DNA from: an uncultured Verrucomicrobiota bacterium
Lineage (GTDB): Bacteria > Verrucomicrobiota > Kiritimatiellia > RFP12 > UBA1067
DNA length: 64,000 bases
Reading direction: 5' to 3'
Assembly: GCA_946055075.1 (NCBI GenBank)
Contig: CAMGEN010000003.1
Span: forward strand, 13,036 to 77,035
The position numbers and the translations under genes were made by a program. Below are positions 38,415 to 55,976 of the stretch, piece by piece; within the stretch, counting starts at the first letter, position 1; each line of letters begins with the position of its first letter. The notes beneath the pieces are model-generated. The model was not told the origin of the DNA and ran no database searches. It saw nothing but the letters and a program-made list of their open reading frames with translations.

Positions 38415-39254
38415 TCAAACAGAAATTGTTTGTAGATATTCTATCACATCCGTAAAGAAGTTTTCAGGCGTCGAGGCACCGGAGGTGACGCCGAGCACGG
38501 AAACGCCCGAGAAATCGATGGCCTTCACCTCGTCCAACGTTCCGGCGCGGAACACCTTAGCGCATTTCGCCACTTCGCAGAGACGACGGGTATTGGACGA
38601 ATTGACACTCCCGAGGACGAGTAGCGCATCGCCGACGAACGCCTTCACCGCATCCTGCCTCGCCTTGGTCGCGTTACAGACCTCGGCCATCGTCTCAACC
38701 TCGTATTCCCCACGAAGCTTCTCAACGACATCCGCCACCTCGTCTGCATTCATCGTCGTCTGAGAGACGACACCCAAAGTGAGTTGAGAAGTTGAGAAGT
38801 TGCGGGTTGAGGGGTTATAGACGACCGAATCAAGGACTTCGCCGGTGATGCCCTTCACTTCGGCATGATCGGGATTGCCAATAACGACGACCTGGCGCCC
38901 ACTAGACGCGAACTCCTTCGCGGCCTTATGCACCTTCTCGACAAACGGACACGTCGCGTCCACCACCATGAGCTTCCGCTCCTCGGCCTGAGCACGTACC
39001 GCAGGCGAGACGCCATGGGCAGAAAACAGCACCGTCGCCCCTTCCGGGACCTCATTCAGCGATTCAACGAAAACCATCCCGAGACGCTTCAAGTCGTTCA
39101 CGACGAGTTCGTTATGCACAAGTTCGTGAAGGCAGTAGACGGGTGCGGGGTGCTGGGTGCATGGTGCAGAGGGAGAGAGCAGAGACTGGGCTTTGCGCAG
39201 GGCGTTAGTGACTCCGGCGCAAAAACCGTGGGGCTCAATGACTTGAATACGCAT
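38415..39254 (-). CDS. ispH: 4-hydroxy-3-methylbut-2-enyl diphosphate reductase
   Basis: Start at MRIQVIEPHGFCAGV (39254). LytB family (HELVHN, SAHG, SQTT). The track start 39320 is a GTG inside the heptamer array. Confidence 0.9.
   Translation of the reverse strand: MRIQVIEPHGFCAGVTNALRKAQSLLSPSAPCTQHPAPVYCLHELVHNELVVNDLKRLGMVFVESLNEVPEGATVLFSAHGVSPAVRAQAEERKLMVVDATCPFVEKVHKAAKEFASSGRQVVVIGNPDHAEVKGITGEVLDSVVYNPSTRNFSTSQLTLGVVSQTTMNADEVADVVEKLRGEYEVETMAEVCNATKARQDAVKAFVGDALLVLGSVNSSNTRRLCEVAKCAKVFRAGTLDEVKAIDFSGVSVLGVTSGASTPENFFTDVIEYLQTISV
38779..38816 (+). repeat. GTTGAGA/GTTGAGG array inside ispH (in frame, pyrimidine strand is sense)
   Basis: AGTGAGTTGAGAAGTTGAGAAGTTGCGGGTTGAGGGGTT. 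Encodes NPSTRNFSTSQLT. Confidence 0.8.
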
Positions 39255-39262
39255 CAGCAGAC

Positions 39263-39336
39263 TTCCGCAACTCTTCACCCCGCACCCTGCACTCCGCACC
39301 CTGCACCCTGCACTCCGCACTCTTCACTTCTCTTAG
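39263..39336 (-). repeat. heptamer array (CACCCYG/CACTCCG units on the plus strand) with termini like those of the 44-nt element, at the mazG-ispH junction
   Basis: CTTCCGCAACTCTTC ACCCCG CACCCTG CACTCCG CACCCTG CACCCTG CACTCCG CACTCTT CACTTCT CTTAGC. Confidence 0.85.
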
Positions 39337-40117: not shown

Positions 40118-40198
40118 ATGTCACAAGTGGTAGCCAATAGTTGTAGTGGTACAGCGGAAATCGACCCTCCTTTGTACCACTACCACTTCCCACTACCA
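40118..40198. repeat. inverted GTGGTAG-type arrays forming a long hairpin with AAGGAGGG in the loop (between the HAD-like gene and mazG)
   Basis: Minus strand reads GTGGTAGTGGGAAGTGGTAGTGGTACA-AAGGAGGGTCGATTTCCGC-TGTACCACTACAACTATTGGCTACCAC. Confidence 0.8.
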
Positions 40199-40864
40199 CT
40201 AAATCCTAAGTATTTCCAACACCGTCTTCGCGGCCGGACCATTGAGCTCCTTCAAAAACTCGTCACAGCCGGTGAAATCCTGATACGCAGTGCGGGCATT
40301 CATCACCGCGACAGACCCCATTCCAGCCCTAAGCGCGGCCTTCACGCTGAACCCGGATCCGGCCACGGCTAACGCATTGTACGGACGCAGACGCGTCCGT
40401 ACGCACGCAAGCCGCCAAGCGTCCCACTTCATGCTACCATAGGTCGGCGACTCTTCCTGATAGAGCTCTACCAACGGATCAAGCAACGCGGCAAAAGTGC
40501 CGCGGACCTGCTCAACGTCGGCGCGAGTCACGATCACGACCTTCACTCCCTTCGCCGTCAGCGCCTTCACAAAGTTCACAAATGTCGCATTCAGAGGATT
40601 CATGACGGCAGCAGTGAACTCTTTACGAACCAGATCACTGAAATCTCGCGCCGCCTTAAGCGCGGTCTTCTTGGTCTTCACCACCTGGAAGTACTCCGCG
40701 AAGCAACCCTGATAACTGCCACCTGCAAAATGCCGCGCCTCAACCGCGGAATCAAAAGGAATCTCGCCGAGATCGGCGAGAAACCTTTCGGTTATCCGAG
40801 AAAGGAGCCCCGCGCCATCTATCGCCGCGAAGTCATATTCGATTATCACGCCTTTATCCGCCAT
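40199..40864 (-). CDS. HAD-like fold protein lacking the canonical DxDxT nucleophile motif
   Basis: N-terminus IIEYDFAAIDGAGL sits where HAD motif I would be. The rest resembles HAD cap and core. Confidence 0.5.
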   Translation of the reverse strand: MADKGVIIEYDFAAIDGAGLLSRITERFLADLGEIPFDSAVEARHFAGGSYQGCFAEYFQVVKTKKTALKAARDFSDLVRKEFTAAVMNPLNATFVNFVKALTAKGVKVVIVTRADVEQVRGTFAALLDPLVELYQEESPTYGSMKWDAWRLACVRTRLRPYNALAVAGSGFSVKAALRAGMGSVAVMNARTAYQDFTGCDEFLKELNGPAAKTVLEILRI

Positions 40865-44101: not shown

Positions 44102-44140
44102 GTAGTTGAGGGGTTGAGAGGTTGAGGGGTTGAGGGGTTT
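44102..44140 (+). repeat. GGTTGAGG octamer/heptamer array between rluA and the gph-like gene
   Basis: GTAGTTGAGGGGTTGAGAGGTTGAGGGGTTGAGGGGTTT. Confidence 0.85.
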
Positions 44141-44885
44141 AGAACGGGGAGGGAGACGAGAATTCCAACCACTCGGAGGTATGTGGATGCTTGAAACGGA
44201 GACGGAGAGCGTGAAGGTAAAGGCGGTCGGATCTAGTCCCGCCGTATTTCACGTCACCGACCACCGGGTGCCCCGCCTCCGAGAAATGCACGCGAATCTG
44301 ATTTTTGCGACCGGACTTGAGGGTGACTTCGACGAGGGAATGGGGAACGGGGGATGGGGAATGAGGAACGGGGGAGAGGAGCTTCCATTCGGTGCGGGCA
44401 AATTTGGGCTTTCTAGAATCAGAGCTACCGAAAACTCTTGATCCGCCGACTGCAACCGATCTGACCTTGTAACCATCAGCGTCTTCCAACAGATAAGACT
44501 CGAAAACTCCGTATGACTTTTCAAACCCACCCTGGACCTTCGCGATATAAGTCTTCTCGGTGAGTTCGTTCCAGTTCGAACGAAAATACTCGGCGACGGC
44601 TTCAGACTTCGCGAACATCATCACACCACTGGTCTCGCGGTCAAGACGATGGACAAGCCAGACACGGTTGCGGCTCTTGAGCTGTCCCTTCCGCACATAA
44701 TCGTTGAGAACGTTCTCCGCCGTCAGCTGCGCTTCCCGCGCCGCCCGCCCAACTACCTTTGTGTGCGTGGTGAGCATCCCCGCGGGCTTGTCGATCACGA
44801 TCACATCGCGATCTTCGTATAAAACGTCAAAGGGAAGCCGATGCCTTCCCTTTGCGCTTCCTGGGAATTTATCCACCGCTCTCAA
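44139..44885 (-). CDS. RluA-family pseudouridine synthase
   Basis: Motifs HRLDRETSGVMMFAK and GRKNQIRVH. The TTG track start lies inside a heptamer array, and a GTG at 44876 is an alternative. Confidence 0.85.
   Translation of the reverse strand: MRAVDKFPGSAKGRHRLPFDVLYEDRDVIVIDKPAGMLTTHTKVVGRAAREAQLTAENVLNDYVRKGQLKSRNRVWLVHRLDRETSGVMMFAKSEAVAEYFRSNWNELTEKTYIAKVQGGFEKSYGVFESYLLEDADGYKVRSVAVGGSRVFGSSDSRKPKFARTEWKLLSPVPHSPSPVPHSLVEVTLKSGRKNQIRVHFSEAGHPVVGDVKYGGTRSDRLYLHALRLRFKHPHTSEWLEFSSPSPF
44337..44379 (+). repeat. GGGGAAT/GGGGAAC array inside rluA (in frame)
   Basis: GGGAATGGGGAACGGGGGATGGGGAATGAGGAACGGGGGAGAGG. Encodes SPVPHSPSPVPHSL. Confidence 0.85.
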
Positions 44886-44913
44886 CCTTTGACCTCAACC
44901 TTCAACCTGACGG
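44876..44913 (-). repeat. GGTTGAR array between fmt and rluA, inverted relative to 44102-44140
   Basis: Minus strand reads CCGTCAGGTTGAAGGTTGAGGTCAAAGGTTGAGAGCGG. Confidence 0.8.
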
Positions 44914-46328: not shown

Positions 46329-46763
46329 CTACAGTACAAATGACGACGGTGGGACGACCGCGATCGCCTTCGAATGGAAATGCGTCAGGTCACGGGTAAA
46401 GAGATGCGAACACCCTGCCTTGACGGCTGACTGCAACTGGATGTCATCCTCGAAGTCACGGTCGTGGAAATCAGCGGCTCGCTGCATCAGTTCCTTGTCG
46501 AGCGGAACGACGTTGAATACAGCGAGGATGCCGCGGACCGCGATCATGGCCGTAGTCTCGCTTTTCAGTCGCTCGGCGACATAATGCACGTTGTTGACGG
46601 TTAAGGCCGAGATGTACCCCTCGACCAGCCCTTCCTCGCATGCCGCCCACAACTTGAGCGCATCATAATAAAACGGTTCGCGCTCAAGGAAGAAGTCAAG
46701 GATGACATTCGTGTCCAGAAAGACCCGCCGCTTGCGGTAAACGCTCTTCGGATGCTTCTTCAT
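46329..46763 (-). CDS. PIN-domain toxin (VapC-like)
   Basis: Start at MKKHPK (46763), with an ATGA overlap onto the antitoxin stop. Motifs FLDTNVILDF and DFEDDIQ. Confidence 0.8.
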   Translation of the reverse strand: MKKHPKSVYRKRRVFLDTNVILDFFLEREPFYYDALKLWAACEEGLVEGYISALTVNNVHYVAERLKSETTAMIAVRGILAVFNVVPLDKELMQRAADFHDRDFEDDIQLQSAVKAGCSHLFTRDLTHFHSKAIAVVPPSSFVL

Positions 46764-47026
46764 CTGGCGCCGAACCTTTCCATCATCCGCTCGCCCAGCA
46801 GTTCGCGATAATCCCAGTCCGCCGGAAGCGGCGCACTCGGCTTCAACAACCCCTTCAGCTGACGCGTCCTCGGCGGCAGCTCCTCCTGACGGCTCTCCGC
46901 CTCGTCCAGCATGCACACCATGGAAACGAAAAGCTTCGAAATGCTGACCTTGCGAACCGCCGAATGATGCCGCGCCCGCTCCAGCACGCTCTCGTCCATA
47001 CTCAAAGACACCCGTGTCGCCGCCAT
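46760..47026 (-). CDS. VapB-like antitoxin
   Basis: 88 aa, upstream of and overlapping the PIN gene. Similar in layout to the second antitoxin at 62229. Confidence 0.65.
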   Translation of the reverse strand: MAATRVSLSMDESVLERARHHSAVRKVSISKLFVSMVCMLDEAESRQEELPPRTRQLKGLLKPSAPLPADWDYRELLGERMMERFGAR

Positions 47027-47039
47027 CTCAAACTCCGTT

Positions 47040-47101
47040 TATGCGTATTGTTTCCCTTAAAGTTATACGCATATTCTATCACACCTGTCTTTGACATGCA
47101 A
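47040..47101 (-). promoter_or_regulatory. candidate vapBC-1 promoter (TTGCAT-17-TAGAAT) with operator-like inverted repeat TATGCGTAT-N16-ATACGCATA just downstream
   Basis: Inverted-repeat arms at 47040-47048 and 47065-47073. The -10 is at 47073-47078 and the -35 at 47096-47101 (minus strand). Confidence 0.55.
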
Positions 47102-47170
47102 TACCACAAACTCAACCTCCATCAGAGCGAAGCCTCGTTACGCGAGCGAGAGCCAACAGTCGCGCGAGAG

Positions 47171-47266
47171 CACATTAACGGGGACGATGTGATTTCGACC
47201 CCCATAGTAAAGGGCGCGCGTGAAGGCGCGCGCGTCGAAATCATGTCGGGGTCCCCGATAATGTGC
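47171..47266. repeat. 96-nt imperfect palindrome (about 29-nt arms enclosing an inner GC hairpin)
   Basis: CACATTA-ac-GGGGACGATGTGATTTCGAC ... GTCGAAATCATGTC-ggg-GTCCCC-ga-TAATGTG. The inner part is GGCGCGCG-tgaag-GCGCGCGC. The two mismatch positions are T-G/G-T on the plus strand. Confidence 0.8.
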
Positions 47267-47285
47267 GGTTCGGGCGAGCTGTCGG

Positions 47286-47362
47286 TCTCGCACCCCTGCT
47301 AGGGCATCGCTTCGCGACTCGCTGCGCTCGGGGGATATGCGTAACCCGGAGCTTGGCTCCGG
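47286..47362 (+). repeat. structured extragenic element, copy 1 (TCTCGCACCCCTG...ATCGCTTCGC...GGGGGATATGCGTAACC plus the CCGGAGC-ttg-GCTCCGG hairpin)
   Basis: Shares three sequence blocks, in the same order and orientation, with 51624-51667. Confidence 0.75.
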
Positions 47363-47404
47363 TACTAAGATCGACTTGAACAACGTCGATCGCAAAATTT
47401 ATCC

Positions 47405-48760
47405 TCACCGCACGGTGATGAGTTCGGACCAGTTGGTGGTGGAACGCTTCGATAGCAACGAGCGCTTCATCTTCCATTCACGGACGATGCCTTCCGAGGC
47501 AGAGAACACCTTGTCGCGTCCGTACCGCGCGTTGAGCGCGTCGATCGCCTGATAGAGCTTCGAGGATTCACGCGGCGCGGATTCGGAAAAGAGATCGAGC
47601 TGCTGCGTCGCGCCGACATGTTCTAGTCCGAAGAAGACAACTCCCGACTTGCGATACCGCGCACCTGGAACCCAGAGCGCCTCGACCCCGTCACTGATCG
47701 CCTTGAGCATCTTGTTGGTCGCGTCCGTCGGCTCAGGAAACATCACGGTCTCGCTCACGAAGTTCGCCTCCCACCCTTCGTCACTTTCAAACATGCCGGG
47801 CTTCGCGAGCTGCGCGTAGATGTTGCAGCCGGACGCGAGGAGTCCGTGCTTGCGCAGCTTCACCGCCGCCTGGGAAGCGAAGGAGGCGACGGACTCCGAA
47901 AGCTCTTCAAGCGTCGTCACGGGACGCCCGAACGAACGCGAACACGAAACCGAATCCGGGTCCGCATCATAATCGCGATCTTGACTGCAGCCGACGCCAC
48001 GAAGCTCGGTCGCGGTCCTGAGCAGCGTCACGCCGCCGATCCTGCGCACCACGTCGTCGGGCGCGTCACGGAGATCCTTCGCACTCGCGATCCGATCGGC
48101 CATTAGCTTGTTGACAAGCCTACGTCCGACCCCCCACACCTCGCCCACTGGCAGCCGCGCAAGGATGTCCGTCGAATCTTCCGGGAGGATGTAGACGCCA
48201 CCAGGCAGTTTCTTGCCGATGTGATTCGCGATCTTGGCGAGCGTCTTCGTCGGCGCAAACCCAACCCCGCACGGGATCCCCGTCCACCGCAGTATCTTCT
48301 TCCTCAGCCTTCTCCCGTATTCTAAAAGCTTTTCCCTCCGCAACTCTTCACTCTTACCTCTTAACTCTTCACTTCTATCCGCCGGCTCCGCCGGCGGATA
48401 GATAAACGCCTCGTCAATCGAATACTGTTCGACATCCAGCGCCTCCTCACGGAGAATGGAGACTATCCGTCGGGACATGTCGCCGTAGAGTTCGTAATTC
48501 GACGAGCGGAAGATCAGCTCTCCAGTCTTCTCGCGGTCCTTCAGCTGGAAGTAAGGAGTGCCGCGCGGAATTCCGAGCGCCTTGAACTCGTTCGACATCG
48601 CGACGCAACAGCCGTCGTTGTTCGAAAGCACGGCAACCGGCTTCCCGACGAGCTTGCGGTCAAACACCCGCTCGCAGGAAACGTAGAAATTGTTACCGTC
48701 AACAAGTCCGATCACAGGGAATGGGGAATGGGGAATAGGGATAGATTCATTTTCCGCCAT
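47405..48760 (-). CDS. umuC: Y-family translesion DNA polymerase V catalytic subunit
   Basis: Motifs VDGNNFYVSCERVFD, YSIDEAF and PTKTLAKIANH. Carries heptamer-encoded segments at the N-terminus and after IDEAF. Confidence 0.9.
   Translation of the reverse strand: MAENESIPIPHSPFPVIGLVDGNNFYVSCERVFDRKLVGKPVAVLSNNDGCCVAMSNEFKALGIPRGTPYFQLKDREKTGELIFRSSNYELYGDMSRRIVSILREEALDVEQYSIDEAFIYPPAEPADRSEELRGKSEELRREKLLEYGRRLRKKILRWTGIPCGVGFAPTKTLAKIANHIGKKLPGGVYILPEDSTDILARLPVGEVWGVGRRLVNKLMADRIASAKDLRDAPDDVVRRIGGVTLLRTATELRGVGCSQDRDYDADPDSVSCSRSFGRPVTTLEELSESVASFASQAAVKLRKHGLLASGCNIYAQLAKPGMFESDEGWEANFVSETVMFPEPTDATNKMLKAISDGVEALWVPGARYRKSGVVFFGLEHVGATQQLDLFSESAPRESSKLYQAIDALNARYGRDKVFSASEGIVREWKMKRSLLSKRSTTNWSELITVR
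48334..48380 (-). repeat. 44-47-nt GTGAAGA-type element, in-frame copy in umuC
   Basis: Plus strand reads CCCTCCGCAACTCTTCACTCTTACCTCTTAACTCTTCACTTCTATCC. Encodes DRSEELRGKSEELRRE. Confidence 0.9.
48717..48744 (+). repeat. GGGGAAT array in the umuC 5' end
   Basis: GGGAATGGGGAATGGGGAATAGGGATAG. Encodes IPIPHSPFP. Confidence 0.85.
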
Positions 48761-49193
48761 TTTTAAACCTATGAATTACTGCCGTAACCATCCCAAAATA
48801 ATCCAACTCATGACCATCGTCAATTCGAATTACCGGATACTTATCATTACCAGGTTCCAGCACATATCTTTTTTTAACAGCCTTCTTCTTCCCATTCCCC
48901 ATTCCCAATTCCCCATTCCCTTCAACGCGCAAGCGTTTGACCGTAAATTCGCCGTCCACGGACGCAATGATGATATCACCGTCGACAGGTGTAAGCGAAC
49001 GATCCACCACCAGCAGATCGCCGGGATTGATGCCGGCATCGATCATCGAGTCGCCTTCTACACGGACGAAGTACGTCGCTGCGGGACGCTTCACCAAGAG
49101 CGCATTCAAGTCGAGCGGCGGTTCCAGATACTGCTCCGCCGGCGACGGAAATCCCGCCACCACCGATCCCGCGACTCTCGCCTTACCGGACAT
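48747..49193 (-). CDS. umuD: UmuD (S24 LexA-like self-cleaving peptidase)
   Basis: AG-FPSPAEQY cleavage region, GDSM serine and FTVKRL lysine. Overlaps umuC by 14 nt. Confidence 0.85.
   Translation of the reverse strand: MSGKARVAGSVVAGFPSPAEQYLEPPLDLNALLVKRPAATYFVRVEGDSMIDAGINPGDLLVVDRSLTPVDGDIIIASVDGEFTVKRLRVEGNGELGMGNGKKKAVKKRYVLEPGNDKYPVIRIDDGHELDYFGMVTAVIHRFKNGGK
48891..48920 (-). repeat. GGGGAAT array in umuD, inverted relative to 48717-48744
   Basis: Plus strand reads CCCATTCCCCATTCCCAATTCCCCATTCCC. Encodes EGNGELGMGNG. Confidence 0.85.
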
Positions 49194-49195
49194 TC

Positions 49196-49234
49196 ACCAC
49201 CTCTTTCTCGACCTCGACCTATAACCTGACACCT
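49196..49234 (-). repeat. GGTCGAG-type array between the radical SAM gene and umuD
   Basis: Minus strand reads GGTGTCAGGTTATAGGTCGAGGTCGAGAAAGAGGTGGTG. Confidence 0.7.
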
Positions 49235-50135
49235 ACTTCACCGTCCCGTGATCAGCGGACATGTTCTCGCCGAGCAGCGCCAGCTTCGGATCGCTCGCCT
49301 CATAGCCCTGAATCCATCCGTTCTCAAATCCGAAATCCGCCGCGGCCTCGGTGACGCTCTCGTATTCCTCCTTCGTCACGGACCGATTGAACGGCGGAGT
49401 CTCCAGAGCCTTGTACGCCGGAGTATATTGCGCCATAATTGAAACCGGAATCTCGCTCGAAAGTTCCGTCGCGAGCCACGCAAGATTCTCGATCGCCTCA
49501 TCCGCATGTCCCGGCAGCACTAACACTCTAACAATTAACCTCCGCAACTCTTCACTCTTCACTCTTACTTCTTCACTTCTCTCAAACGCCCACTTTACCG
49601 CGGCGCGGGAGGCCTCGACATAACCGGGGGCGGAACTCGCCTTGATCGCGGTCTCGTTTTTGGAGTAACGGAGATCGAAAAGCGCCCAATCACAGAGATC
49701 ACTGTATTCCTCCAATGTCTCAACGCGTTCATAGCCAGACGAATTCCAGACGAACGGAAGTCTGACACCTTCCTTGAAGAGCGGCTCGACCGCCTCGCGG
49801 ATATACGGCAGATACGGCGTCGGCGAAACAAGATTCCAGTTCTCCACCTTGTCCTTCACCGCCAGCTCGCGGAAGATCGCCGTCAGTTCGGGAATCGTCT
49901 TGTCAACGCCTTCACCCTTCCAGCTCCACGGCGAATTCTGACAGTAAAGACACTTCATCGTGCAACGAGAGAAGAACACGCAGCCGCTACCACGCTCACC
50001 GGTGATCGGCGGTTCCTCCCCGAAATGCGGCCCCCACCGGAATACCCGCGGCAAATCCGCCGCGCCGCAGTAACCGGGACGCTTGCCGCACTTTCTCGGA
50101 CACAGCTCGCAAATATCGAAACGGCAACTGCTCAC
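49233..50135 (-). CDS. radical SAM protein, PflX-like (pyruvate formate-lyase activase homologue)
   Basis: CTMKCLYCQN motif, 300 aa, GTG start. Contains an in-frame copy of the 44-nt element. Confidence 0.75.
   Translation of the reverse strand: MSSCRFDICELCPRKCGKRPGYCGAADLPRVFRWGPHFGEEPPITGERGSGCVFFSRCTMKCLYCQNSPWSWKGEGVDKTIPELTAIFRELAVKDKVENWNLVSPTPYLPYIREAVEPLFKEGVRLPFVWNSSGYERVETLEEYSDLCDWALFDLRYSKNETAIKASSAPGYVEASRAAVKWAFERSEEVRVKSEELRRLIVRVLVLPGHADEAIENLAWLATELSSEIPVSIMAQYTPAYKALETPPFNRSVTKEEYESVTEAAADFGFENGWIQGYEASDPKLALLGENMSADHGTVK
49537..49583 (-). repeat. 44-nt GTGAAGA-type element, in-frame copy in the radical SAM gene
   Basis: Plus strand reads AACCTCCGCAACTCTTCACTCTTCACTCTTACTTCTTCACTTCTCTC. 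Encodes ERSEEVRVKSEELRRL. Confidence 0.9.
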
Positions 50136-50224
50136 TGATCACCACTCCATGTTCACTGTCCCAGAAACTCGTTCACCCTCGTCTTGTTATCGGTGTAATC
50201 CTTGCCCCATACCTAATCCCTACC

Positions 50225-51511
50225 TTATATCCTGTCCTTTTCCAGAAAACGAAGGCGAGCCAGAAGGATGACAAGCGCACCAATGAGATAGAAGACGGAA
50301 AGCGAGGACATCGAAAGCGCCATATTACCGAAAACCTTCGCGAGCCAGGGGAGCACCGTGGAGGATAGCGAACCGACAAGGAAAGCGATGCACATCATGA
50401 TGCCGACGCCGGAAGCATGATAACGCGGATTGACCACATCAAAGAACGATGCAATAAAGTTCGAGTCGTAGACGCCGCGGAAGAATCCGAAGCCGAGCAT
50501 CGCGACACAACACGCGATGAAGGTCGGCGCGTTCGCCATCCAGATGATAAACGGAACCGAAAGCGCAAGTCCAGCCACGCCGAGCTCCAGACGGATTCCT
50601 GGACGGCGCTTCGCAACCTTGTCTCCGAAACGCGATCCAAGCATCACGCCGACGATCGCGCCTACATAATGCCAGACGACGGCATGAAACCCGTGCCAGG
50701 TCTTGAGGAATATGTTCTTACCCGCATCTAGATCCATGTAATGACCCTGCAGGAACGCCGGCATCCAGTTCTTGAAGCCGATGTCAACATAGATCATCAT
50801 CGCCAAGCCCAAAATCACGCAGATCGCTGTTGGCTTGGAGAAGACCGACGCGACCGCTTCGCGGATCGTCGGTTTTCCAGGTTGAAGGTCGGAGGCTGAA
50901 GGTTGAACGGCGGATTCGACCGGTTTGGTGTTCTTAAGGAACACGGAGAGCAGAACCGCCCAGCCAATACCGATCGCGCCGAAGGTCCAGAACGGAACAC
51001 GCCAGTGTTCGCCGCCCTGTCCCGCCACGAAACCAGCGAGCGTTCCGCAGCCGATGATGCCGAGGTAGAGCCCGAGCTGGAGGATGGACATCGCCGTCGC
51101 GCGCGAATCCTTATGAAGCTGCGACACCAGCGAGGTGGCCGAGGGATAGTAGAAGGTCTGGCCGAGTCCGTTAAGGACGCCGTACGTGACGACCAGCAGG
51201 CCGACGGATGCCACGAAGCCAGAGAGGAAGATGCCGAGACAGAACACCGCGACGCCGATCGTCACCATCCACTTGCGGCTGAAGAGGTCCGCGGTGATTC
51301 CGGCGATCGGCACGCAGATGCCGTACATCATCGCGAACACCGTTCCCACGACGCCGATCGCCACCTTCGCATCCTCCGGATCCGTGGTCGGCAACAACGT
51401 CGCACACATTGCCCCGAGGGACGGCCCGTACAACTGACGAGTACCCTGTTGAAGAAAGAACGCAACCCACAGCAGGATCAACGCCGTCCACTTGTAATCA
51501 AGTTTTTTCAT
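50225..51511 (-). CDS. MFS transporter (anion/sugar-acid symporter-like)
   Basis: About 12 TM segments. Start at MKKLDYKW (51511), 9 nt downstream of TATAAT. Confidence 0.8.
   Translation of the reverse strand: MKKLDYKWTALILLWVAFFLQQGTRQLYGPSLGAMCATLLPTTDPEDAKVAIGVVGTVFAMMYGICVPIAGITADLFSRKWMVTIGVAVFCLGIFLSGFVASVGLLVVTYGVLNGLGQTFYYPSATSLVSQLHKDSRATAMSILQLGLYLGIIGCGTLAGFVAGQGGEHWRVPFWTFGAIGIGWAVLLSVFLKNTKPVESAVQPSASDLQPGKPTIREAVASVFSKPTAICVILGLAMMIYVDIGFKNWMPAFLQGHYMDLDAGKNIFLKTWHGFHAVVWHYVGAIVGVMLGSRFGDKVAKRRPGIRLELGVAGLALSVPFIIWMANAPTFIACCVAMLGFGFFRGVYDSNFIASFFDVVNPRYHASGVGIMMCIAFLVGSLSSTVLPWLAKVFGNMALSMSSLSVFYLIGALVILLARLRFLEKDRI
50877..50910 (+). repeat. GGTTGAA/GGTCGGA array inside the MFS gene (central loop)
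   Basis: CCAGGTTGAAGGTCGGAGGCTGAAGGTTGAACGG. Encodes VQPSASDLQPG. Confidence 0.75.
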
Positions 51512-51516
51512 ACTAC

Positions 51517-51537
51517 GGGTATTATAACATATTACCC
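51517..51537. promoter_or_regulatory. palindrome GGGTAATATGTTATAATACCC overlapping the extended -10 (TGTTATAAT) of the MFS promoter
   Basis: Read on the minus strand. The arms GGGTAATAT and ATAATACCC differ at one position. Confidence 0.5.
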
Positions 51538-51623
51538 TCACCACAACGACATACTCCGTGGATATCGCATCGTCGCGGCTTCGGCAGAAGTCGTCTCAGT
51601 CACCGCTCGAACTCTTGATTTCT

Positions 51624-51667
51624 TCTCGCACCCCTGGTATCGCTTCGCTTGGGGGATATGCGTAACC
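51624..51667 (+). repeat. structured extragenic element, copy 2
   Basis: TCTCGCACCCCTG-gt-ATCGCTTCGC-tt-GGGGGATATGCGTAACC. Same orientation as copy 1. Confidence 0.75.
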
Positions 51668-51713
51668 GCGAGGCGCGAAGCACCGCAGCACCACACGATG
51701 GTTGCTCGCCGTT

Positions 51714-53723
51714 CTAACGACGGATGAAAGAGATATTACGGAGACGGATGTGCTCGGCGGTGGCGGTGGAGCGGAGATTAAGCGCTACGAGTTCGGTATG
51801 CGCGAGATCGAACGCGGTATCGAAGGCAAATTCGATCGGATGCCAGGCGTCATCACAGGGTAACGTCACCGGTTTGCCATGATAACGCGTCTCGTTGGAA
51901 AACAGAAGGAGCTCGAGCTGCGCATTGGAATCACCGGACAGCTTCACTTCGCCGGAAAAAACCCAGTGTCCGTTCCCCACCGACTTGAAACCCTCGGTCA
52001 CCACCGCCTGTACGCCGGCGTTCTTCTCACACTGGACAAGGTGATAGACCGCCGCGCCCTTCTCGTCCCGCTCCGTCGCCTCAAACTTTGTCATCCACGA
52101 GGGGAAGCGCGACCATACAGAATGCCGCGGCAGTTTCTCCGCGACGAGATTCGCATCCGCGACCTGCACCGCAGCGGGTTTGCCGCGGAACCTCCAACCG
52201 ACACTGACAACATCTGCGAACGCTGGAATTGCCGGCTCAGATTTCTCACCAGTGATCGTCAGCTCGAGTTCACCCGGCTCGCCCTGAACCATCCAGTCCG
52301 TTGGCGACGTCAGCCGCCTCCCGTCGTACCAACAGTTCGCAACCTTCACCACGAAATTCGACGAGACCAGCCATTTCTTCGGATCGTTGCGCACGATGAC
52401 CACCGGACCGAGCGACTTGCCTTTGTTCCTCCACCCGCTCACGCCGACCGCATGCGGGAACACGCAATCCTCGAAGACGAACGTCTTGGGCAGCGTGCCC
52501 ATGTTCTGTCCGCGGAAAAGCCAGCTGATATTCCCGCAATCAACCGCGGAGAGCCGCTTGAAGACGAAGTCGTTCTCCTGATGCTTCAGGTCCTGCGGAC
52601 CCGGCTCGCGCTTCTGCGCGGCGCCGTTCATCTCATTCCACTTGTTGTTACGCCGCAGCACTCCGTTGTATTCGTTGCCGACCAATCCCTCGTCCGCGCG
52701 GAAGACATTGATGTCCTCCATTAGCACGCGCATGTTGGTGCTCTGCGGAAACACCGCCTTGCAGGTAGTGCCGATCGTGACGTCACGATAAACTGCATCC
52801 CTTACGCCGCTTACCACGAGCGCATTGTCTCCGACATAAACCCATGAATGTTCAACCAGCGGATTCTTTCCGCCGTTGGTGAATCCGTCTGAACACATCA
52901 TCGTGGCAAGCAGCTTGACGTTGCGGAAAACCGCACCATCGGCCCAGCAGGTAATGTTGAACGTACGCGCATCGACGAGCTTCACGCCTTCCACCTTCGT
53001 GCCAATCCCGCCAATAGCGACAAGCCCCCGTCTCGTGTTCTGAGTCTGGTCATAACGGAAGATATCACTCATCGGATCGAGAATCATTCCGCGTCCGTGA
53101 AGATACATTCCCTTCGCCTTCAGCCTGAGCCGCGCATTCAACACCGCACCCGGCGCGATGTAGATCTCCTTGACGTCATCGGCGACTGGTAGCACTCCAT
53201 CCCTATCCGGAGCCTCAAGCCAGCCGTCGACGAAAAGACAACCTGGCTTATCCTTCGCCGGGACATCCGTTTCCGGCGCATCGGCGAAGACCGAAAGAAT
53301 CGTCTTATCGTAATCATTGATCCGCACTCCGAAATAATCCGGTTTATCCAGCCATACCGAAATTACGCCGTCTGTGAACGAATGACGGAACCGTTTCGCG
53401 GACGGAAAGACGTTATAGCTTTCGACATCTCCGTTGACCGCAATATCAACGCGCACCGGACCACCCTCGAAGGCGAACTCGCAGAAACGCCGGTTCACGT
53501 CCCCACCGTAAGTGCGATCGCGGAGCGCGTCCTTCTCGCAGTGATTCCACACTACAAGCGGCTTCGTCACCGAATCCTGCGTCACGGACACGCGATAGAA
53601 ATCGTCACGTTCGATCGCGGACGGATAATCCGGATAAACGACTAGCGCGTTTTGTGCCTGCGCACAAAACGCGGAAAGCCAGAAGGACAAAGCAAGAAGA
53701 AAAAAACGAGGAATATTCATCAT
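51714..53723 (-). CDS. secreted right-handed beta-helix (pectin-lyase-fold) glycoside hydrolase-like protein with C-terminal beta-sandwich region
   Basis: Signal peptide MMNIPRFFLLALSFWLSAFCAQA. Beta-helix-like repeats (VYVGDNALVVSG, DGFTNGG). The family assignment is tentative. Confidence 0.55.
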   Translation of the reverse strand: MMNIPRFFLLALSFWLSAFCAQAQNALVVYPDYPSAIERDDFYRVSVTQDSVTKPLVVWNHCEKDALRDRTYGGDVNRRFCEFAFEGGPVRVDIAVNGDVESYNVFPSAKRFRHSFTDGVISVWLDKPDYFGVRINDYDKTILSVFADAPETDVPAKDKPGCLFVDGWLEAPDRDGVLPVADDVKEIYIAPGAVLNARLRLKAKGMYLHGRGMILDPMSDIFRYDQTQNTRRGLVAIGGIGTKVEGVKLVDARTFNITCWADGAVFRNVKLLATMMCSDGFTNGGKNPLVEHSWVYVGDNALVVSGVRDAVYRDVTIGTTCKAVFPQSTNMRVLMEDINVFRADEGLVGNEYNGVLRRNNKWNEMNGAAQKREPGPQDLKHQENDFVFKRLSAVDCGNISWLFRGQNMGTLPKTFVFEDCVFPHAVGVSGWRNKGKSLGPVVIVRNDPKKWLVSSNFVVKVANCWYDGRRLTSPTDWMVQGEPGELELTITGEKSEPAIPAFADVVSVGWRFRGKPAAVQVADANLVAEKLPRHSVWSRFPSWMTKFEATERDEKGAAVYHLVQCEKNAGVQAVVTEGFKSVGNGHWVFSGEVKLSGDSNAQLELLLFSNETRYHGKPVTLPCDDAWHPIEFAFDTAFDLAHTELVALNLRSTATAEHIRLRNISFIRR

Positions 53724-55942: not shown

Positions 55943-55976
55943 CTTCAGTATTCACTATTCACTGTTCACTTGACAG
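55943..55976 (-). repeat. GTGAATA array upstream of the GH13 gene
   Basis: Plus strand reads CTTCAGTATTCACTATTCACTGTTCACTTGACAG. Confidence 0.75.

Follow-up and report, generated by a model that had tools for sequence, protein, structure and literature searches.

Cyanobacteria, xanthomonads and sulfur bacteria have been known for decades to carry heptanucleotide arrays, which have no accepted origin or function. Heptameric simple-sequence repeats (SSRs) have been reported with the unit GGGAATC in Xanthomonas and GGGGAYT (STRR-type) in Nostoc (PMC4692102), and with the unit TAACTGA in Beggiatoaceae (PMC4679880). The arrays of these groups are mostly intergenic or confined to the ends of proteins (PMC4692102, PMC4679880). 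Heptamers are also known from the intervening sequence (IVS) in the 23S rRNA of Coxiella burnetii, a selfish element of 428–444 nt. It encodes S23p in an open reading frame (ORF), and RNase III cuts its 28-bp terminal stem; upstream of the ORF, the heptamer GACAGAT is repeated in tandem two or three times, depending on the strain (PMC4990558). The S23p protein of Xanthomonas is a homopentamer (PMC4990558), and PF05635, the family of S23p, is the Avd-like family of diversity-generating retroelements (PMC10053308). Outside these retroelements, no role is known for the S23p/Avd-like proteins of rRNA IVSs. The present study concerns the umuDC operon in a stretch of 64,000 nucleotides (the window; GenBank assembly GCA_946055075.1, contig CAMGEN010000003.1, positions 13,036 to 77,035) from an uncultured member of the Kiritimatiellae, whose related contigs come from pig and ruminant gut metagenomes. 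The locus ties heptamer arrays to S23p, and the arms of an S23p-flanking inverted repeat survive in frame in an operon for a DNA-damage polymerase. An earlier reading of the window (the original prediction) had treated three heptamer-encoded segments of UmuD and UmuC as equivalent peptide inserts; two of them are complementary arms of the S23p-flanking pair and one is a solo array.

Complementary arrays and an S23p gene in the umuDC operon

The array in the UmuD hairpin and the array at the umuD/umuC junction (Table 1) are one object, the two arms of an inverted repeat. Positions 48716–48741 and 48896–48921 are 92% complementary over 26 nt. The stem predicted for the umuDC mRNA is about 29 bp long (z −4.2), encloses the 3' third of umuD and stops 1 nt before the GTG of the umuC core; the arm duplex has a free energy (dG) of −50 kcal/mol, as against −26 ± 3.6 kcal/mol for shuffled arms. 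Terminal inverted repeats with a stem of about 25–30 bp or more, as in IVS-like elements, are therefore present. A hairpin beside the UmuD array was not significant (z −1.5). The same arrangement of arms is found where the S23p gene is present (L043, z −7.0), and an unrelated S23p locus also yields a stem (L134, z −5.5).

A PF05635 gene of 116–126 aa (23S_rRNA_IVP, with a weak bAvd match) lies between umuD and umuC in L043, L037, L050, L006, the close relatives L103 and L105, and L125–L129. All of these umuD-S23p-umuC operons, examined for both arms as far as the contig reaches, have a G-rich array in the UmuD hairpin and a C-rich array that ends at the umuC ATG; in L043, L037, L050, L006 and L125–L127 the C-rich array spans the distance from the S23p stop codon to this ATG. 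The lengths of the arms co-vary between strains, with 10 and 5 units in L125 and 19 and 8 in L127. Four of the six species-level loci that have a junction array, the window included, carry S23p, compared with none of about 70 loci that have no junction array. A match in unit type between the two umuDC arms from species to species was not counted as evidence, since each genome favours one unit type throughout.

In the window itself only the first 17 nt of the PF05635/S23p ORF are left. The window agrees with L103 up to ATGGCGGAAAATGAATC, with the same 14-nt overlap of the start codon with the umuD stop. L103 then continues as a 126-aa PF05635 gene that ends in a C-rich array, and the window sequence jumps straight to the C-rich array. 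Identity to L103 followed by this jump identifies MAENES-IPIPHSPFP-V as a deletion remnant fused in frame to umuC. Codon 16, where the core of umuC begins, is GTG in the window and ATG in L087, L088 and L092. The original prediction took the N-terminus of UmuC to be encoded by an array; an array is indeed present, but what it encodes is an extension of the ORF made by deletion and not the true N-terminus. The ATG that remains is a true start in relatives, so that the extension may well be made.

S23p genes and flanking arrays in other metagenomes

That S23p genes are accompanied by inverted heptamer arrays of a set polarity holds generally. Eighty metagenomic loci (L139–L218) were retrieved via S23p protein alignment, at 43–70% identity to the query. 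Of the 80, 55 have an array within 150 nt upstream of the PF05635 gene, 46 have one within 150 nt downstream and 38 have both, and the density of arrays is 4.69 per kb near the gene versus 0.49 per kb further off. In 44 of 74 loci the two flanks of the gene are complementary, versus 5.5% for flanks paired across different loci, and the pairs of units differ widely from locus to locus (AGGGATG/CTCATCC, CGGGACT/AGTCCCG, GGTCATT/GACCAAT, AGACGTT/AACGTCT). Of the 61 upstream arrays, 59 are skewed, 57 of them towards G over C; downstream, C exceeds G in 45 of 48 arrays. Both consist of about 5 units, the upstream arrays stopping at a median distance of 41 nt from the start codon and the downstream arrays beginning at a median distance of 12 nt past the stop. 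That the arrays are oriented with respect to the ORF speaks for an action on the transcript and not on DNA alone. As in IVS-like elements, the heptamers are tied to the ORF and variable between strains. Further PF05635 loci (L108–L138), from diverse lineages, show the same flanking pattern, and the copy number at one and the same S23p locus varies by sample, with 13 units in L108 and 9 in L110.

The UmuD hairpin

The 5' arm occupies the tip of the beta-hairpin that follows the catalytic Lys of UmuD. The match of the protein to E. coli UmuD' (1e-29) runs through FTVKRLRV and resumes at LEPGN. The ancestral turn, TYRRDKDGVR, takes up 30 nt or 10 aa (ancestral hairpin FTVKTYRRDKDGVRLEPANP) and has been replaced by arrays in a dozen lineages. 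L002 has an AGGTTGA-type array at the same position, which reads VEVEKG instead of GNGELG. The claim that the UmuD insert is encoded by an array holds for EGNGELGMGNG but not for KKKAVKK, which is a lineage-specific linker found also in L002 next to a different array. The UmuD proteins of very close relatives have 160–174 aa versus 148 in the window, with in-frame block duplications of +21 and +36 nt.

The palm-loop insert of UmuC

The insert in the palm loop of UmuC is a separate solo array that is polymorphic within the species, being present, replaced or absent. UmuC matches the Dpo4/Dbh polymerases, with ~12 residues more after SIDEAF. With the empty allele of conspecific strains as the reference, the insert measures 54 nt or 18 aa and not the 14 or so residues (42 nt, six heptamers) that had been estimated. 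It is composite and comprises 13 nt that repeat the left flank in inverted orientation, a loop of 3 nt, about 4.6 units and GCGGAG. The inverted copy forms with the flank a perfect hairpin (DNA fold, dG −16.9 kcal/mol, z −5.0). In other species the inverted copy mirrors their own flank (AACGCCTCCG...CGGAGGCGTT in L015/L044; CGTTCCGCCAAA joined to TTTGGCGGAACG in L050). Such species-matched copies would be the expected product of fold-back template switching or of ongoing palindrome correction. No target-site duplication was found in the comparison of filled and empty umuC sites; six target nucleotides are replaced.

Three alleles of this site occur within the species, as seen in a population set of 22 related contigs, 21 of them at 95.6–100% nucleotide identity to the window and one, L002 (~90%), serving as outgroup. 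The first is the AAGAGTG-type array of the window, the second is a GGGAACA/GGGAATA-type (GGGAAYA) array of identical length, found in 12 of the 22 contigs, and the third is empty and reads ATCTATCCRCCGGCG, GTTGAC and CTCATTGAA in succession (L001/L096, L100, L101 and L002). Conspecific strains that are ~98% identical have no UmuC insert; contig L084 is 100% identical to the window across 4.3 kb. In the wider comparison of loops, with about 70 species-level umuDC loci, the ancestral linker from SIDEAF to YG..LR is 30–39 nt long (10–13 aa) in most loci. It reaches 51–159 nt, with heptamer arrays, in 13 loci, all of which are Kiritimatiellae with a patchy distribution among empty relatives. The short ancestral loops in most of these loci bear out the view that the segments are lineage-specific, and the case that would have spoken against it, a conserved feature of the family, is rejected.

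The umuC array and an array in the radical SAM gene (rSAM) 1.2 kb away form a 45-nt direct repeat that is 89% identical and in the same reading frame, and the ends of the umuC array are common to copies at 39262 and 59453. The identity to the rSAM array and the shared ends indicate that the umuC array is a copy and not an independent expansion. In other strains a TCAACCT-type array, equal in length, takes the place of the rSAM array. Pairing between the umuC and rSAM arrays was considered and rejected, as both have the same sense and dG is −3.7 kcal/mol. Variants of the unit keep TGA and TAA out of frame in the umuC array, and their stop-avoiding placement gives a super-period of 21 nt or 7 aa (SEELRGK/SEELRRE), the 7-residue periodicity having been correctly described before. 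The same reading had it that the frame is kept through multiples of three heptamers; the arrays measure 32, 25 and 30 nt, none of them a multiple of 21, and it is the restriction of the observed indels to multiples of 3 (54, 6, +21 and +36 nt) that keeps the frame. As further observations on umuC, the gene in L106 and L107, with UmuC 86–87% identical, overlaps at its start (ATGA) not with umuD but with an ORF of 447–448 aa (L106:1661–3004 and L107:1110–2456) that has no Pfam match, and its loop holds a hexamer array (GGTGAA/GGTGGA) with a length difference of 42 nt between the two contigs.

Abundance and authenticity of the arrays

Heptanucleotide arrays of about four units pervade the host genome and are placed or kept only where the products tolerate them. 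Period-7 arrays were called with Tandem Repeats Finder (TRF), and the statistics are based on 699 kb, consisting of the window and related loci. Arrays of period 7, 14 or 21 number 70 in the real sequence versus 4 in the shuffled sequence, and a stricter count gives 41 arrays of period 7 versus 1–11 for each of the periods 5, 6 and 8–11. The mode of the copy number is 4.0–4.5 units (17 of 41 arrays) and 2.5–3.5 copies are less common, so that there is no monotonic decay. Both hallmarks of heptameric SSRs, a period of 7 far beyond chance and a preference for about four units, are thus found here. The UmuD array has five tracts of three or more G, whereas AAGAGTG-family arrays have none. The four-unit mode also holds for units free of G-tracts (AAGAGTG, AGGTTGA, AGTGAAY), such as the arrays called by TRF in umuC and rSAM and those at 50879–50907 and 55944–55970; the formation of G-quadruplexes is therefore unlikely to be the sole or general cause of the preference. 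The window has 16 arrays overall, about a dozen of them in addition to those of Table 1, and about half of the 16 lie inside ORFs. Solo arrays show no strand bias relative to transcription, as purine-rich and pyrimidine-rich arrays both occur on the mRNA strand.

An assembly artefact was rejected on the basis of identical arrays in about 20 independent contigs from other samples. The genes are intact and not pseudogenes: the ORFs are whole, and the apparent split of umuC in L094 is a run of N. A partial umuC match in L045 was considered as an array frameshift and rejected, the contig being rearranged or chimeric instead. The UmuD and UmuC domains, the catalytic residues and the adjacent, overlapping genes are those of a DNA polymerase V. 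The Ala-Gly cleavage site (A13-G14), Ser49 and Lys86 of UmuD and D21, D116 and E117 of UmuC are invariant.

Encoded peptides

The repeats in DNA or RNA probably came first, and the encoded peptides are most likely by-products. Indels between strains in the MFS-rSAM-umuD-umuC block occur only at arrays and are all in frame (22 contigs). Nucleotide diversity is 0.30 at the rSAM array, the highest in the 4.4-kb region, and 0.15 at the umuC array, with a mean of 0.028. The GC content of third codon positions is 0.46 within arrays versus 0.71 outside; AGA/AGG, AGT, TTG and GGG are favoured within arrays, and rare codons dominate. The translations of the segments quoted earlier are exact, and their assignment to loop positions is upheld by AlphaFold: residues 94–104 of UmuD have a confidence score (pLDDT) of <50 and lie between the strands 82–91 and 109–113. 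Residues 1–13 and 126–135 of UmuC likewise have a pLDDT of <50, the extension is predicted to be disordered, and the helix after the UmuC insert is prolonged through SEELRREK. For annotation, Gly/Asn/Glu-rich and Pro/Ser/His-rich loops in such genomes are not to be taken as functional motifs, and extensions of ORFs through leader arrays are possible mis-called starts.

Origin of the arrays

The explanation considered probable combines paired arms linked to S23p, a solo copy in the palm loop and passenger peptides. A G-rich 5' arm and a C-rich 3' arm bracket an S23p/Avd-like gene for a four-helix bundle between umuD and umuC in relatives, and the body of this gene has been deleted in frame in the window strain, so that its start codon and six codons are now joined via the 3' arm to umuC, the 5' arm staying in frame in UmuD. 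The arrays would matter at the level of the nucleic acid. The arms of the umuDC mRNA would presumably pair in vivo in a stem of about 29 bp, which the analogy to S23p-bearing IVSs of 23S rRNA makes a likely substrate of RNase III and/or a device that may couple the translation of umuC to that of umuD. GNGELGMGNG, IPIPHSPFP and SEELRGKSEELRR would be passenger loops, filtered only for frame and the avoidance of stops. S23p may recognise the repeats, and the solo arrays presumably derive from the same system as the arrays that flank S23p. Natural alleles with and without the gene and the arrays make the recognition by S23p, the RNase III sites and the origin of low-complexity loops testable.

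Several observations weigh against this explanation. No PF05635 gene was found in the 64-kb window, and the link to S23p rests on relatives. The 5' arm lies inside umuD, about 150 nt upstream of the S23p start, with genuine umuD sequence in between, which rules out their arrival as one contiguous cassette. UmuD arrays occur in lineages without S23p (L008, L022, L029), and many arrays of the window have no evident partner. The complementarity of the arms could partly reflect a genome-wide preference for one family of units, and, as arrays occupy the UmuD site across many lineages, a long flexible loop could bring some benefit.

Wider in scope, and put forward as a doubtful possibility, is the proposal that the heptamer arrays of bacterial genomes are not ordinary microsatellites but belong to a widespread selfish IVS-type cassette around a pentameric S23p/Avd-like protein, as its paired arms and perhaps as repeats that the protein binds. 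The cassette would colonise mRNAs as well as rRNA, and solo arrays and ORF-less hairpins of G-arrays and C-arrays inside genes, the UmuC and UmuD loops among them, would be its footprints. If true, it would give a common origin to the heptamer excess in cyanobacteria (STRR), Xanthomonas, Beggiatoaceae and Kiritimatiellae, and it predicts RNase III-dependent processing of host operons. Generic SSRs with no link to S23p, made by slippage or template switching and left by selection in loops and spacers, with an incidental complementarity of the arms, are an unlikely alternative with several observations in its favour: at least 8 families of units and many solo arrays occur in the window, UmuD also has arrays where S23p is lacking, the umuC site has a fold-back copy of its flank such as template switching makes, and the heptamer excess with a four-unit mode seen here has been described in Xanthomonas and Nostoc (PMC4692102). 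It leaves unaccounted for, however, the strict period of 7 across unrelated units, the polarity around S23p ORFs (57/59 and 45/48), the reverse complementarity of upstream and downstream units that are specific to each lineage, and the co-occurrence of junction array and S23p (4/6 versus 0 of about 70).

The other explanations are far less probable. A flexible acidic or Gly-rich loop that would modulate the cleavage or dimerisation of UmuD, or the contacts of UmuC with RecA or the clamp, would make the inserts adaptive, and both the occupancy of the UmuD hairpin site in many lineages and the predicted extension of the helix through SEELRREK fit with it. Strains ~98% identical, however, have no UmuC insert or have the unrelated peptide REQGIGNREQ, the UmuD of L002 has VEVEKG where the window has GNGELG, and it is the periodicity of the DNA that is conserved and not the peptide, with atypical codons and low pLDDT, so that this explanation is very unlikely. 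Also very unlikely is a phase-variation switch, in which, 7 not being divisible by 3, gain or loss of one unit would turn umuD or umuC off, as with the heptanucleotide repeat of neuO in E. coli, and place the error-prone polymerase under stochastic control. The copy number, and with it the length of UmuD, does vary among close relatives (148, 160, 167, 172 and 174 aa; 146, 151 and 181 aa in another lineage), and umuD is frameshifted inside the array in one metagenome-assembled genome, L050. This allele, from goat rumen (L050:3440–3520, GNGEWWGD*), is the sole one out of frame and may represent a real off-state, a pseudogene or a repeat collapsed in short-read assembly. The long near-perfect tract and the frequent out-of-frame alleles of a phase-variable locus are not seen; the arrays are short and imperfect (72–94% matches, 3.6–4.6 units), about 40 alleles, many of them retrieved regardless of frame, are all in frame except that of L050, an identical allele is found across many samples, and for neuO, in contrast, 65.6% of genomes are phase-OFF (PMC13001214). 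The least probable is a classical mobile mini-element similar to a miniature inverted-repeat transposable element (MITE) or a Rickettsia palindromic element (RPE), which would transpose whole and insert in frame. Near-identical copies of 42–45 nt with shared ends in rSAM, umuC and the leader of the glycoside hydrolase family 10 (GH10) gene speak for it, RPEs are a precedent for in-frame insertion (PMC10969869), and in the UmuC loop of L006, L015, L044 and L050 a G-rich array is followed by its C-rich complement with no ORF, resembling ORF-less derivatives. Target-site duplications and a transposase are absent, though, length and unit content are variable, and the spacing of the arms and the S23p ORF is not constant and includes host coding sequence; the defined ends, terminal inverted repeats and target-site duplication by which a MITE or RPE is recognised are not those of these arrays.

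Other arrays and features of the region

Table 1. Genes, arrays and inserts of the umuDC region, with positions in the 64,000-nt window.
Feature	Position	Strand	Description
umuC ORF as read	47405-48760	minus	451 aa; Pfam IMS + IMS_C + DUF4113
umuC core start as in orthologues	GTG 48715-48713	minus	codon 16; orthologues begin MIGLVD
umuD	48747-49193	minus	148 aa; Peptidase_S24
Radical SAM gene (rSAM)	49233-50135	minus	contains the 49539-49583 array
UmuD hairpin-tip array, G-rich GGGAATG (mRNA sense)	48891-48920	minus	encodes EGNGELGMGNG; 5' arm of inverted pair
CATTCCC array, C-rich in mRNA sense	48717-48741	minus	abuts umuC core start; 3' arm; reads IPIPHSPFP in extended ORF
S23p/PF05635 gene remnant ATGGCGGAAAATGAATC	48744-48760	minus	17 nt, codes MAENES; overlaps umuD stop by 14 nt
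UmuC palm-loop insertion EPADRSEELRGKSEELRR	48335-48389	minus	54 nt, in frame, between SIDEAF catalytic strand and next helix
Perfect 13-bp hairpin TCTATCCGCCGGC-GGA-GCCGGCGGATAGA	48374-48402	minus	left arm ancestral I-Y-P-P codons, right arm inserted
AAGAGTG-family array + GCGGAGG end	48335-48379	minus	copy of rSAM array
rSAM in-frame AAGAGTG-family array RSEEVRVKSEELRR	49539-49583	minus	paralogous to umuC array
AACTCTT array (TRF)	48342-48373		4.6 copies; in umuC
GGGAATG array (TRF unit)	48717-48741		3.6 copies; umuD/umuC junction
CCCATTC array (TRF unit)	48891-48920		4.3 copies; in umuD
Period-7 array in rSAM gene (TRF)	49547-49577

Elsewhere in the window, arrays occupy short spacers just upstream of the starts of genes for an amylase, an enolase-superfamily (MR_MLE) enzyme, GH10, a pseudouridine synthase and lytB, and in-frame arrays also occur in the pseudouridine synthase, LytB, an AraC-type regulator and the central loop of the MFS transporter. 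Two more pairs of arrays are G-rich at the 5' and C-rich at the 3' side in the sense of the mRNA. One of them (44882–44908 with 44105–44139, dG −33.8) consists of the leader and trailer of the pseudouridine synthase gene and brackets the whole gene. The other (39264–39328 with 39141–39167, dG −52.6, a value that one of 300 shuffles came near) consists of the mazG-lytB junction and lytB codons 38–46 and encloses the start and the first 40 or so codons of lytB, its 3' arm being in frame. The array at the mazG/lytB junction is absent in strain L093. In addition, the spacer upstream of mazG (40126–40200) has inverted (AGTGGTA)n and (TACCACT)n repeats with 33-nt arms 9 nt apart, which resemble an ORF-less array hairpin. 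L002 has five copies of GAATTAA, a different family of units, in the spacer upstream of the amylase gene (L002:1445–1492), and inverted (GAAAAAT)n ... (ATTTTTC)n in a spacer that is array-free in the window (L002:3663–3773).

A dispersed repeat of about 50 nt, GGTTACGCATATCCCCC...CAGGGGTGCGAGA, stands in direct orientation on both sides of MFS-rSAM-umuD-umuC (47286–47351 and 51624–51672), with 85–88% identity and no Rfam match, and in some strains (L093–L102) a DNA methylase/GmrSD island lies beside its upstream copy. Downstream of umuC, a toxin-antitoxin-like pair with PIN-domain and DUF6364 genes (46329–47026) occurs in the window, L083 and L086, but L093–L095 lack it and have a formyltransferase gene directly after umuC.

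Comparison with described systems

Literature searches on Kiritimatiellae together with heptamer repeats yielded nothing on these arrays in that group, and a search on S23p/PF05635 together with heptamers nothing beyond the Coxiella IVS paper; no paper was found that generalises the link between heptamers and S23p or describes elements of this kind within coding sequence or operons for mRNA. The heptanucleotide variable-number tandem repeat of neuO in E. coli K1 (PMC13001214) also lies in coding sequence and gives a 7-aa periodic peptide when in frame, but its arrays are long and perfect, with 3–53 units, and mostly phase-OFF, whereas those described here are short, imperfect and essentially always in frame. 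The RPEs of Rickettsia (PMC10969869) are likewise selfish repeats that sit in frame within unrelated housekeeping genes, where the fold can accommodate them; they are, however, units of about 150 bp with a conserved sequence and a peptide of their own, in contrast to variable heptamers without fixed boundaries. The SSRs of Xanthomonas, Nostoc and Beggiatoaceae share with the present arrays the period of 7, the genome-wide spread, the mode of about 4 units and a unit very similar to GGGAATG. Their location in short spacers of co-directional genes and just upstream of start codons is that of some of the present arrays, about half of the 16 in the window lying inside ORFs. They differ in that here at least 7 arrays in 26 kb lie within conserved enzymes and several unrelated families of units coexist, with a four-unit mode also in the absence of G-tracts; a link to S23p is unreported in the papers on these SSRs.

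The S23p IVS of Coxiella burnetii and Leptospira has a PF05635/S23p ORF for a four-helix bundle between terminal inverted repeats with a stem of about 28 bp, as do the operons described here, and the two are alike in the strain-variable heptamers upstream of the ORF, the decay or deletion of the ORF in some strains and the sporadic distribution. In contrast to an IVS, which is located in a helix of 23S rRNA (helix 45) and excised by RNase III, the present element lies in a protein-coding operon, umuD-S23p-umuC, and a search of Rfam over 46900–51800 at E <= 0.1 returned zero matches. Processing by RNase III is known for the IVS, whereas here we infer it, and the ORF is gone from the window. Overall, both arms in the umuDC operon are heptamer arrays that stand in frame in the flanking genes, where they are translated or translatable, unlike the terminal repeats of the IVS.

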